Shown here in pieces: positions 20 to 38,826 of a stretch of 64,000 nt of DNA; within the stretch, counting starts at the first letter, position 1; the number at the start of each line of letters is the position of its first letter. The stretch covers positions 57,536,001 through 57,600,000 of the forward strand of contig OX597820.1 in the NCBI GenBank assembly GCA_951406725.2, given 5' to 3'. Below the pieces are notes generated by a model, which saw nothing but the letters and a program-made list of their open reading frames with translations, was not told the DNA's origin and made no database searches. The position numbers and the translations under genes were made by a program. The DNA comes from Octopus vulgaris. Lineage: Eukaryota.

Positions 20-330
20 AGTTGTTTTTATGCTGTGCAAATTCTAACGCTTCTTAAACTTTTTAAACCAGCCTTCACTCGCCGGAAAAGGCTTTTCATT
101 AGATGTGCTCGCCCTCCTTGGGGAGGGGAGATAATCAAAAGAATCAAATATTCTCCAAAACTGATATGTCATTAAGAAAAATGATAGGCTACTTGTCTGG
201 AGATAAGAAGACAGTTGTTGACACATGTTTCTTGCTCAAAAGCCATCATCAGCACAGCAATTGTTCAGTATTATTTCCAGTAGACATGGGACTTAGAGTT
301 ATACAAAAAGTGTAGAACACATTCATGGCC
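20..330 (-). mobile_element. Tigger/pogo (CENP-B-like) transposase remnant
   Basis: ORF 44..226(-) ends in EKPFPASEGWFKKFKKR, matching the F-x-AS-x-GW-F-x-x-FKKR motif of the CENP-B/Tigger HTH. Surrounding frames are broken. Confidence 0.7.
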
Positions 331-11940: not shown

Positions 11941-12160
11941 AGGCAGTGAGCTGGCAGAATCCTTAGCGTGCTGGACGAAATGCTTTTCGGTAATTCGCCC
12001 GTGGCTACGTTCTAGAGTTCAAATCCCACCGAGGTCGACTTTGCCTTTCATCCTTTCGGGGTCGATAAATTAAGTACTAATTGCGCACTGGAGGTCGACC
12101 TAATCGACTGGTACCCTCCCCCAAAATTTCGGGCCACGTGCCTAGAGTAGAAAAGATTAT
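11941..12160 (+). mobile_element. SINE family A (alternative 3' tail)
   Basis: Family A head and core, then tccccaaaatttcgggccacgtgcctagagtagaaaag and an (ATT)n tail. Confidence 0.8.
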
Positions 12161-12522: not shown

Positions 12523-13215
<693 letters not shown>

Positions 13216-13436
13216 TCAATATAGGGTGGCAAAAAAATTTTGTAGAATTCTTTTGCCACCAGCGGCCTAGTGGGAAAAAAATTAAATAGTCATAAACCAT
13301 TTTTAAGTTCAACATCACAATCAAGGAACGGCCATAATAGGCCATTCACCCACTAGAAATAACAGCCAAAAGCTTTAACCGCAAAATAACGTCAATTCCG
13401 TAAACCAGGAGAAAATTAAAAAACATTTACCCTGTA

Positions 13437-13543
13437 ATTTCTTAGACGATGCACCGTTTCATCTACTGTTTAATGGAAAACTAACCTGATTAAATTAAAT
13501 CAAGCCAATCTACCATAGGCCCTTAGATTCATCAGTAAGAAAT
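13437..13543 (-). ncRNA. Type I hammerhead ribozyme
   Basis: Reverse complement of the 14294-14400 motif. Predicted cleavage between 13445 and 13444. Confidence 0.88.
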
Positions 13544-14293
13544 AGCCAAGCCGGAACAGATATTTTTCACGAGGCAAGTCTGCACCTCGTCAATATCTGA
13601 CCTAAAATTTTCAAATCGTCGCATATCGCGCCAAATTTATCGGCAGCAAATAAATATAAGCCGCCGATTCCATTACGGAATTAACCAGAAAATTCATAAT
13701 TAATCAATATAGGTGGCAAAAAAATTTTGTAGAATTCTTTTGCCACCAGCGGCTAGTGGGAAAAAATTAAATAGTCATAAACCATTTTTAAGTTCAACAT
13801 CACAATCAAGGAACGGCCATAATAGGCCATTCACCCACTAGAAATAACAGCCAAAAGCTTTAACTGCAAAATAACGTCAATTCCGTAAACCATGAGAAAA
13901 TTAAAAAACATTTACCCTGTAATTTTTTTAATTTTCTCCTGGTTTACGGAATTGACGTTATTTTGCGGTTAAAGCTTTTGGCTGTTATTTCTAGTGGGTG
14001 AATGGCCTATTATGGCCGTTCCTTGATTGTGATGTTGAACTTAAAAATGGTTTATGACTATTTAATTTTTTCCCACTAGGCCGCTGGTGGCAAAAGAATT
14101 CTACAAAATTTTTTTGCCACCCTATATTGATTAATTATGAATTTTCTGGTTAATTCCGTAATGGAATCGGCGGCTTATATTTATTTGCTGCCGATAAATT
14201 TGGCGCGAGTGCGACGATTTGAAAATTTTAGGTCAGATATTGACGAGGTAGCAACGAGAATGCCTCGTGAAAAATATCTGTTCCGGCTTGGCT

Positions 14294-14400
14294 ATTTCTT
14301 ACTGATGAATCTAAGGGCCTATGGTAGATTGGCTTGATTTAATTTAATCAGGTTAGTTTTCCATTAAACAGTAGATGAAACGGTGCATCGTCTAAGAAAT
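14294..14400 (+). ncRNA. Type I hammerhead ribozyme
   Basis: Stem I atttctta(14294-14301)/taagaaat(14393-14400), CTGATGA 14302-14308, stem II atcta..tagat with a long inner hairpin, GAAA 14377-14380, quasi-palindromic stem III cggtgcatcg, GTC triplet 14390-14392. Confidence 0.9.
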
Positions 14401-14525
14401 TACAGGGTAAATGTTTTTTAATTTTCTCCTGGTTTACGGAATTGACGTTATTTTGCGGTTAAAGCTTTTGGCTGTTATTTCTAGTGGGTGAATGGCCTAT
14501 TATGGCCGTTCCTTGATTGTGATGT

Positions 14526-14573
<48 letters not shown>

Positions 14574-15582: not shown

Positions 15583-15898
15583 TCTGCCCACAAGGGGCTA
15601 CACACAGAGTCGTAAAGTCGACCTCGGCGGAATTTGAACTCAGAACGTAAAGGCGGACGAAATACCTATTTCTTTACTACCCACAAGGGGCTACACACAG
15701 AGGGGACAAACAAGGACAGACAAACGGATTACGTCGATTATATCGACCCCAGTGCGTAACTGGTATTTATTTAATCGACCCCGAAATGATGAACGGCAAA
15801 GTCGACCTCGGCGGAATTTGAACTCAGAACGTAAAGGCGGACGAAATGCTGCTAAGGTTTTTCGCTTGGCTTGTTGACGATTCTGCCAGCTCGCCGCC
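15583..15898 (-). mobile_element. SINE family A
   Basis: Reverse complement of the family A head plus repeated 3' module. Confidence 0.85.
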
Positions 15899-16140
15899 TC
15901 TGACAATGATTTCAAGTTTTAGCGCAAAGCCAGCAATTATTAACGATAAATAGTCAATACTTGAAATCCTTGCAAGAATCGCTCGGGCAATGACCGTAGA
16001 AACCAATGTCAAACCAATATGGACAGGACTTTTGTTTGCATCTTCTTGTCGCGTGCAAGACGTTGGCTCTCGCGGCGAACATTGTGTATGAAACATTGTG
16101 TATGAAACATTTTGGCATAGCCATTTTAGTACTACCTTTG

Positions 16141-34170: not shown

Positions 34171-34766
34171 GGCGAGCTGGCAGAACCGTTAGCACGCCGG
34201 GCGAAATGCGTAGCCGTATTTCGTCTGCCGTTACGTTCTGAGATCAAATTACGCCGAGGTCGACTTTGCCTTTCATCCTTTCGGGGTCGATTAATTAAGT
34301 ACCAGTTACGCACTGGGGTCGATAGAATCGACTTAATCTGTTTGTCTGTCCTTGTTTGTCCCCTCTATGTTTAGCCCCTAGTGGGTAATAAAGAAATACG
34401 TATTTCGTCTGCCGTTACGTTCTGAGATCAAATTCCGCCGAGGTCGACTTTGCCTTTCATCCTTTCGGGGTCGATAAATTAAGTACCAGTTACGCACTGG
34501 GGTCGATGGAATCGACTTAATCTGTTTGTCTGTCCTTGTTTGTCCCCTCTATGTTTAGCCCCTAGTGGGTAATAAAGAAATACGTATTTCGTCTGCCGTT
34601 ACGTTCTGAGATCAAATTCCGCTAAGGTCGACTTTGCCTTTCATCCTTTCGGGGTCGATAAATTAAGTACCAGTTACGCACTGGGGTCGATGGAATCGAT
34701 TTAATCTGTTTGTCTGTCCTTGTTTATCCCCTCTATGTTTAGCCCCTTGTGGGTAATAAAGAAACA
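34171..34766 (+). mobile_element. SINE family A with three tandem 184-bp modules
   Basis: Module starts at 34217, 34401 and 34585. TSD gatatatcc at 34162-34170 and 34767-34775. Confidence 0.9.
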
Positions 34767-38024: not shown

Positions 38025-38826
38025 TATTTCTTTATTGCCCACGAGGGGCTAAACATAGAGGGGACAAACAAGGACAGACAAACGGATTAAGTTGATTACA
38101 TCGATGCCAGTGCGTAACTGGTACTTAATTTATCGACCCCGAAAGGATGAAAGGCAAAGTCGACCTCGGCGGAATTTGAACTCAGAACGTAGCGGCAGAT
38201 GAAATACTTATTTCTATTTCTTTACTAGCCACAAGGGGCTAAACATAGAGGAGACAAACAAGGACAGACAAACGGATTAAGTCGATTATATCGATCCCCA
38301 GTGCGTAACTGGTACTTATTTAATCGACCCCAAAAGGATGAAAGGCAAAGTCGACCTCGGCGGAATTTGAACTCAGAACGTAGCGGCAGATGAAATACTT
38401 ATTTCTATTTCTTTATTGCCCACAAGGGGCTAAACACAGAGAGTACAAGCAAGGACAGACAAACGGATTAAGTCGATTATATCGACCCCAGTGCGTAACT
38501 AGTACTTATTTAATCGACCCTGAAAGGATGAAAGGCAAAGTCGACCTCGGCGGAATTTGAACTCAGAACGTAGCGATAGACAAAATATCTATTTCTTTAC
38601 TACTCACAAGGAGCTAAACACAGAGGGGACACACAAGGACAGACAAACGGATTAAGTCGATTAGATCGACCCCAGTGCGTAACTAGTACTTATTTAATCG
38701 ACGTCGAAAGGATGAAAGGCAAAGTCGACCTTGGCGGAATTTGAACTCAGAACGTAACGGCAGACGAAATACGGCTAAGCAATTCGCCCGGCGTGCTAAC
38801 GTTTCTGCCAGCTCGCTGCCTTCACT
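38025..38826 (-). mobile_element. SINE family A with four tandem modules
   Basis: Four ~185-bp repeats ending in the tRNA-like head. Flanking duplication aaatacaa(c/t)actattct. Confidence 0.9.

Follow-up and report, generated by a model that had tools for sequence, protein, structure and literature searches.

The window analysed here, 64,000 nt of the Octopus vulgaris genome (contig OX597820.1, positions 57,536,001 to 57,600,000), contains a head-to-head insert of a 490-nt repeat. Most probably, the repeat is a non-LTR retrozyme which was put into a (TA)n microsatellite by a Penelope-like reverse transcriptase (RT)/GIY-YIG endonuclease using two primings 105 nt apart.

The insert and its parts

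The arm pair spans 13208-14528 and is embedded in (TA)n; a check for target-site duplications found (TA)n microsatellite on both flanks (Table 1). Unit positions are counted from the first base past the predicted cut. In the left arm the ribozyme sense reads on the minus strand, from +5 to 490 and then from 1 to 236 (1.47 units); in the right arm it reads on the plus strand, from +22 to 490 and then from 1 to 136 (1.23 units).

Table 1. Features of the insert (window coordinates unless given as unit positions)
Feature	Position	Strand	Details
Left target microsatellite	13105..13210	.	(TAT)23 then (TA)20
Long-end ("tailed") arm	13208..13925	-	718 nt; outer 3' end at unit 236, inner 5' end at +5
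"Tail" of about 105 nt	13208..13313	-	unit 132-236, between the two family-fixed outer ends
16-bp hairpin inside the "tail"	unit 184-219	-	fold prediction
Type I hammerhead, left arm	13437..13543	-	predicted cut 13444/13445
Cut-to-cut monomer minus first 4 nt	13445..13925	-	sequence alignment to unit
Head-to-head junction	13924..13925	.	+5 joined to +22, 2-nt TT overlap
Short-end arm	13924..14528	+	605 nt; inner 5' end at +22, outer 3' end at unit 136
Type I hammerhead, right arm	14294..14400	+	motif, fold, conservation
Stem I, right-arm hammerhead	14294-14301/14393-14400	+	
CUGAUGA, right-arm hammerhead	14302-14308	+	long stem II follows
GAAA, right-arm hammerhead	14377-14380	+	then short stem III, palindromic UGCA loop
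C17, right-arm hammerhead	14392	+	predicted cut 14392/14393, after GTC
Right target microsatellite	14528..14572	.	(TA)22

The preliminary description placed the start of the minus arm about 4 nt from the cut and that of the plus arm about 21 nt past the same site. Both distances are exact, with 4 and 21 nt lost, respectively. The coordinates also agree with its view of 13445-13925 as roughly one cleavage-to-cleavage monomer (short by 4 nt) and of arms passing the next cut by 237 and 136 nt into (TA)20 and (TA)22. Its observation that both arms exceed unit length is correct for this copy, and applies to a minority of the family (10 of 59 census pairs). Compared with the other laps, the monomer at 13445..13925 has five private substitutions and small deletions.

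No frame of at least 200 aa crosses the element. An autonomous Penelope-like element (PLE) was considered and rejected, as there is no RT + GIY-YIG ORF: none of four PLE proteins used as tblastn queries matched the window.

Elsewhere in the window, positions 34215-34764 and 38025-38772 are occupied by tandem arrays (184-nt x3 and 191-nt x4) of an abundant SINE-like repeat, related pieces of which lie near 11960-12160 and 15600-15900. The hammerhead core is absent from both arrays.

A dispersed family with two fixed outer ends

Genome-wide search (2.8 Gb) returned 1087 candidate places of the 490-nt repeat, which forms dispersed tandem arrays of up to 11 units. We took 160 loci: 40 best matches, 80 selected by junction pattern (78 on contig C1 and two on C2) and 40 for replication. 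The best matches were chosen for holding a full unit and are thus length-biased, so enrichment was counted on junction-picked loci; the pool comprises 131 length-unbiased loci with 231 inner ends, the window being left out. Flanking arms of other inserts (L108, L118, L146, L097), rearranged arms in L086 and L146 and two sister-family arms in L207 were dropped. The subfamily of the window copy was delimited by haplotype grouping, the sequence patterns meant for picking it being unspecific.

Outer ends of the arms are fixed near +131 (102-136) and +236 (226-243) and are fused to (TA)n. There are 418 exact 131-(TA) and 812 exact 236-(TA) junctions genome-wide, with none in either reversed-pattern control. 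All 123 typed two-armed inserts (119 loci plus two loci with two inserts) have one end of each type, and like-type pairs, be it two +131 or two +236 ends, are missing among them. Another 38 loci have only one typed arm; in eight of these the outer end of the partner lies outside both classes or is eroded. The short-end arm of the window copy stops at unit 136, the mode of the family being 131. A TA tract of at least 10 nt follows 91 of 100 short ends and 104 of 109 long ends, which is partly a matter of ascertainment; TA tracts are also present at the ends in the first 40 loci, selected without that criterion. According to fold prediction, +131 and +236 are both located in unpaired stretches directly 3' of hairpins.

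Two fixed outer ends in strict one-of-each pairing support double priming at (TA)n, as had been proposed from the window copy. The overrun lengths of about 237 and 136 nt were also correctly noted, but it was missed that both mark family-fixed priming sites, the signature of a Penelope "tail".

In L227 and L135 two complete inserts are adjacent within one TA tract, so the TA tracts of earlier inserts have been re-targeted. L207 (681-1250; G000:C2:6211580-6212150) contains a retrozyme of a sister family, with about 70% identity over unit 1-236, in the TA tract that also holds a copy of the main family. The sister family has a different type I hammerhead with a 4-bp stem III and keeps the head-to-head design, both hairpins and both outer ends.

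The predicted hammerhead

The unit is non-coding and has a GC content of about 36%. The predicted fold includes an 8-bp stem I, CUGAUGA, a long stem II, GAAA, a short stem III with a UGCA loop and a cut after GUC. No Rfam family reaches its gathering score and by E-value there are only chance hairpin matches, so the hammerhead call is based on motif, fold and conservation. Conservation of the core across about 275-290 genomic copies is 99.6-100%, apart from N7 (80%) and H17 (C or A, with the NUH triplet kept), which are the variable positions of the hammerhead consensus. In some copies loop III is changed from TGCA to TATA and remains palindromic, and a compensatory pair in stem II is found in 17 copies. 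A short helix III with a palindromic loop is described, in the accessible text of PMC4209133, as a mark of hammerheads working as dimers.

Folded as a circle, the unit reaches -148.9 kcal/mol as compared to -111.0 +/- 6.2 for 60 shuffles (z -6.1); the circular fold of the opposite strand has -99.6 kcal/mol. By these sequence features the element belongs to retrozymes, and its self-cleavage is predicted. Two points count against our explanation: the energy of the hammerhead fold exceeds that of the best fold by 3.3 kcal/mol, and eight of nine Xenopus retrozyme dimers did not cleave according to the accessible text of 10.64898/2026.07.22.740005.

Arms, laps and the template

Polymorphic-site comparisons between the two arms of a locus give 30 differences in 2491, while the difference between loci is 29%. 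Among 32 arms outside the commonest haplotype, the own partner is the closest match for 27 (strictly so for 16). This shows that both arms of a locus have a common source and suggests, without proving it, that they were copied from a single RNA molecule. Since only 20 of 121 locus-private variants are common to both arms, the likeness dates from insertion and not from later conversion.

Between laps of the same arm, the difference is 0.9% of polymorphic sites, and among 171 rare variants 29 are present in every lap, some of them in both arms, as expected for rolling-circle copying. All 373 internal cut sites are seamless, with no indels, which argues against end-to-end template jumps. Seamless junctions and lap-wide variants support the earlier suggestion that copying of a circle or multimer went beyond a single unit.

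Arrays could also be produced without circles, from linear multimer transcripts of existing arrays or from monomers with end-to-end template jumps. Such a scheme, which concerns the circle step alone, suits the window copy (a dimer) and the rare variants that recur every 2, 2, 3 and 4 units in the arrays of L131, L112, L134 and L032, respectively, a periodicity for which multimeric circles or subsequent unequal exchange may be responsible. However, with a median arm of 251 nt (census) and arrays as long as 11 units, copying by itself should make arrays shorter; variants shared by all laps and the intact cut junctions are further points against it. We consider copying without circles unlikely and retain circles as the probable source of the arrays.

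Inner ends accumulate just past the predicted cut

In the census of the chromosome, 34 of 144 inner ends fall within +1..+30, and an equally strong window anywhere in the unit was obtained in 0 of 5000 constant-hazard simulations. Forty new loci replicated this (17 of 74 inner ends, 4.8 expected). Pooled counts are 52 of 231 versus 13.9 expected, a 3.7-fold enrichment, while the 30 nt upstream of the cut (461-490) have 11 ends versus 12.3 expected. Counts in 5-nt bins (1 and 1 before the cut, then 7, 10, 11, 9, 10 and 5, then 1) show a sharp edge at +1. Outside the cut region, where most inner ends (179/231) are located, stops occur at an even rate of about 0.0017 per nt. The proposed enrichment of junctions at the cleavage position is thus borne out family-wide.

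The two ends of an insert tend to stop together. Among the first 88 pairs, 11 have both ends in +1..+30, as compared to 2.9 by permutation, and in all 17 such pairs of the whole set the two arms end in one and the same lap (the first lap for 15 pairs, the second for two). The length-biased first 40 loci had only 8 of 66 ends at the cut; an apparent cluster of ends at the 184-219 hairpin in these loci disappeared in the census.

The pile-up might be caused by sequence itself, with double priming kept: RT could pause at the predicted +11..+40 hairpin, or AT-rich microhomology could fix the joining point, making the window junction incidental. The stops are indeed spread over +1..+29 rather than piled at +1, 24 of 30 nucleotides of this stretch are A/T, and microhomology is used at junctions: overlaps of at least 2 nt are found in 35 of 86 junctions, i.e., in 35 of the 58 without insertion (60%, versus 18% at random), the other 28 having insertions. 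The weak enrichment in the window's own subfamily also fits. A sequence cause should act in each lap, yet stops at the cut are in excess in first passes (44/193) and not significant in later ones (8/115, P 0.18), a contrast partly confounded by subfamily differences. Besides, bins that are as AT-rich, more palindromic or provided with stronger hairpins are all unenriched, and the edge at +1 is sharp. We regard a sequence cause as improbable, and run-off at a ribozyme-made 5' end as the likely source of the excess.

In L083, L101, L123 and L064 the head-to-head junction is filled by iterated AT-rich insertions similar to the +20..+30 stretch. These may be akin to the templated insertions of microhomology-mediated end joining.

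Alternatively, a single cDNA (or an antisense RNA, as proposed for Penelope self-priming in the accessible text of PMC3846280) could fold back at a palindrome and be copied into the second arm. This would account for the shared haplotype of the arms and for the 20 of 88 junctions that are symmetric within 10 nt (5.0 by permutation), although such symmetry is also expected from two like cDNAs annealing at palindromes. The remaining 68 junctions are asymmetric, either arm may be far longer than its partner (102 vs 2883 nt in L043, 5517 vs 41 nt in L032), and the second arm has its own fixed end site. Moreover, stops pile up at the sense-strand cut, which would be missing from an antisense template, and our data therefore favour a sense template over the antisense self-priming of PMC3846280. 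Fold-back is contradicted as a general mechanism and very improbable as such; some symmetric copies could still have been made in this way.

Several private small deletions in the left arm might hint at an assembly or chimeric-read fold-back artefact, but this is hardly credible given unique, non-mirrored flanks, an asymmetric junction, arms ending at different fixed sites and recurrence of the design at 160 loci and in two unrelated PLE families. Among the contigs of public runs, all of them short, a few in X1, X2 and X7 span the junction, with about 20-26 letters on either side and a single difference each; they are below the 31-letter bridging rule and were not counted.

The window copy

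First-cut stops are rare in the haplotype group of the window copy and common in older groups (about 28%). With the window excluded, its group has 2 first-cut stops in 40 passes and 2 second-cut stops in 17, which is near background, whereas the other groups have 42 first-cut stops in 153 passes. Arms are also longer in the window's group (median 546 vs 250 nt).

Among 20 loci whose two arms extend as far as the second cut, two (the window and L064) have both arms ending there, with 0.05 expected. The +5/+22 geometry was seen again in L090 and L101. Because its own subfamily shows little enrichment, the junction of the window copy is likely, and no more than likely, to lie at the cut as a consequence of a ribozyme-cut end. 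The earlier claim that the insert was copied from RNA with a hammerhead-made 5' end is thus supported for the family, where ends are enriched, and is only probable for this copy.

A ribozyme-made 5' end excludes a closed circle. The template for the window copy would therefore have been a linear dimer whose 5' end had been cut while its one internal site stayed intact, which we regard as quite probable; otherwise, the copy came from a circle with a chance stop. Of the circular-or-multimeric template previously suggested, the multimer agrees with this view, while the closed circle is incompatible with a cut 5' end in this copy.

A possible mechanism

The fixed outer ends, their strict pairing, the shared haplotype, the cut-site excess and the seamless junctions are direct observations, from which we infer the steps of transcription and cleavage, circularisation, nicking and priming, copying of circular or linear RNA, and cDNA joining. 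Transcripts of arrays would self-cleave after GUC or GUA, and the majority of the cleavage products would circularise while some remain linear. The enzyme would nick both strands of (TA)n, one cDNA being started at +131 and the other at +236. On circles, cDNAs would be extended further, dropping off at a constant rate of about 0.0017 per nt, and tandem arrays would result; cut linear RNA would instead let both cDNAs run off at +1. The 3' ends of cDNAs would then be trimmed to microhomology or patched with short AT-rich insertions and joined.

A broader reading is possible, and we hold it tentatively. The family may be an in vivo record of Penelope integration, in which a dimeric RT/endonuclease primes the two target strands on one RNA, obligately at two different structure-defined sites, with sense templates of both the hammerhead-cut linear and the ligated circular kind. 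Subfamilies might then have shifted the linear-to-circle ratio, the youngest one using mostly circles.

Relation to known systems

In LINE-1 twin priming two target-primed cDNAs produce a head-to-head inversion joined by microhomology, as here. The second LINE-1 priming site is variable and the arms represent different parts of the RNA, whereas in our family the sites are fixed and the arms overlap.

Comparisons with published systems below refer to the accessible text of the papers cited. For metazoan non-LTR retrozymes, a circular RNA intermediate and mobilisation by PLEs have been proposed (Cervera and de la Pena 2020, PMC7229834; Li et al., 10.64898/2026.07.22.740005). Our element resembles them in having a non-coding, low-GC tandem unit in dispersed arrays and a type I hammerhead with a palindromic loop III. 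Unlike them, it has a slightly longer unit (490 nt), a long stem II and no pLTR homology that we could find. Head-to-head arms, fixed paired priming sites and inner ends at the cut are not described in the accessible text of either paper.

For PLEs, copies that are inverted and 5'-truncated have been described, as have insertion into (TA)n and a 30-40-bp tail confined to one end (PMC8557442; PMC3846280). Like endonuclease-bearing PLEs, our element has an inverted 5'-truncated copy at the 5' end, a tail at one end and a preference for (TA)n; like PLEs, the 775-aa family described below included, it has a hammerhead about 130-140 nt upstream of the short end (PMC8557442; PMC3846280). It differs from PLEs in the lack of an ORF and in repetition of the whole unit up to 11 times. 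Thus, the element works like a PLE, yet is not an autonomous one. Its tail is 105 nt long as opposed to 30-40 nt in PLEs (PMC8557442; PMC3846280), which counts against our explanation.

For the PAc enzyme in vitro, both DNA strands were reported to be cut and extended, with RT starting at two internal RNA sites (PMC11167929). Two internal RT starts defining a tail and an AT-rich target are common to PAc/Poseidon (Frangieh et al. 2024, PMC11167929) and our family. For PAc no strand difference in start site was seen, whereas here there are two sites, always one per strand; no PAc reads ended at the cut (PMC11167929), while about a quarter of first passes stop there in our family. Hammerhead cleavage was dispensable for PAc insertion in vitro (PMC11167929), another point against our explanation.

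Our literature search, which covered main texts and few subscription papers (retrozyme consensus tables in supplements could list the family), found no description of this repeat family, nor of the strict one-site-per-strand rule, the 105-nt tail, the shared arm haplotype or the cut-site junction pile-up. How PLEs make inverted one-tailed inserts, the role of the hammerhead and the mobilisation of retrozymes are stated to be open questions in the accessible text of PMC8557442, PMC11167929 and PMC7229834. The family provides hundreds of natural products of a 490-nt template. It gives direct structural evidence for PLE-type mobilisation of a retrozyme, a strict rule of one priming site per strand and evidence of ribozyme-cut sense RNA as template. 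With a minimal substrate and two intact, very young PLE proteins encoded by this genome, the scheme can be tested in vitro.

Resident Penelope-like elements

At least two PLE families with an intact RT + GIY-YIG ORF (781 and 775 aa) are present in the genome; in both, a separate ORF lies upstream. Both have (TA)n targets and two 3' ends 30-40 nt apart, and a short end was paired with a tailed one in all six inverted PLE inserts inspected. Comparison of our unit with these two families, pLTR included, gave no match beyond chance; this helper and pLTR comparison covered two PLE families in a genome with 6136 GIY-YIG candidates. A decayed PLE near L110, considered as a helper, proved to be a separate insert.

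The 781-aa family (L163-L179, e.g., G000:C16:20833500-20843000) has an upstream 479-aa ORF without a Pfam match, a 456-bp pLTR, a 40-nt tail and a (TA)n target. It therefore has two ORFs, while a single ORF is described for canonical PLEs. The canonical hammerhead was not found in this family.

The 775-aa family (L183-L206, e.g., G000:C2:139231919-139233637) is very young: the 76 copies scored show 100% protein identity along 573 aa. A separate 454-aa ORF is located upstream, and a search of solved structures with the 775-aa protein gave no match. Its pLTR contains a hammerhead-like motif with CCGAAGA in place of CUGANGA; a relative in L154 has CTGAAGA.
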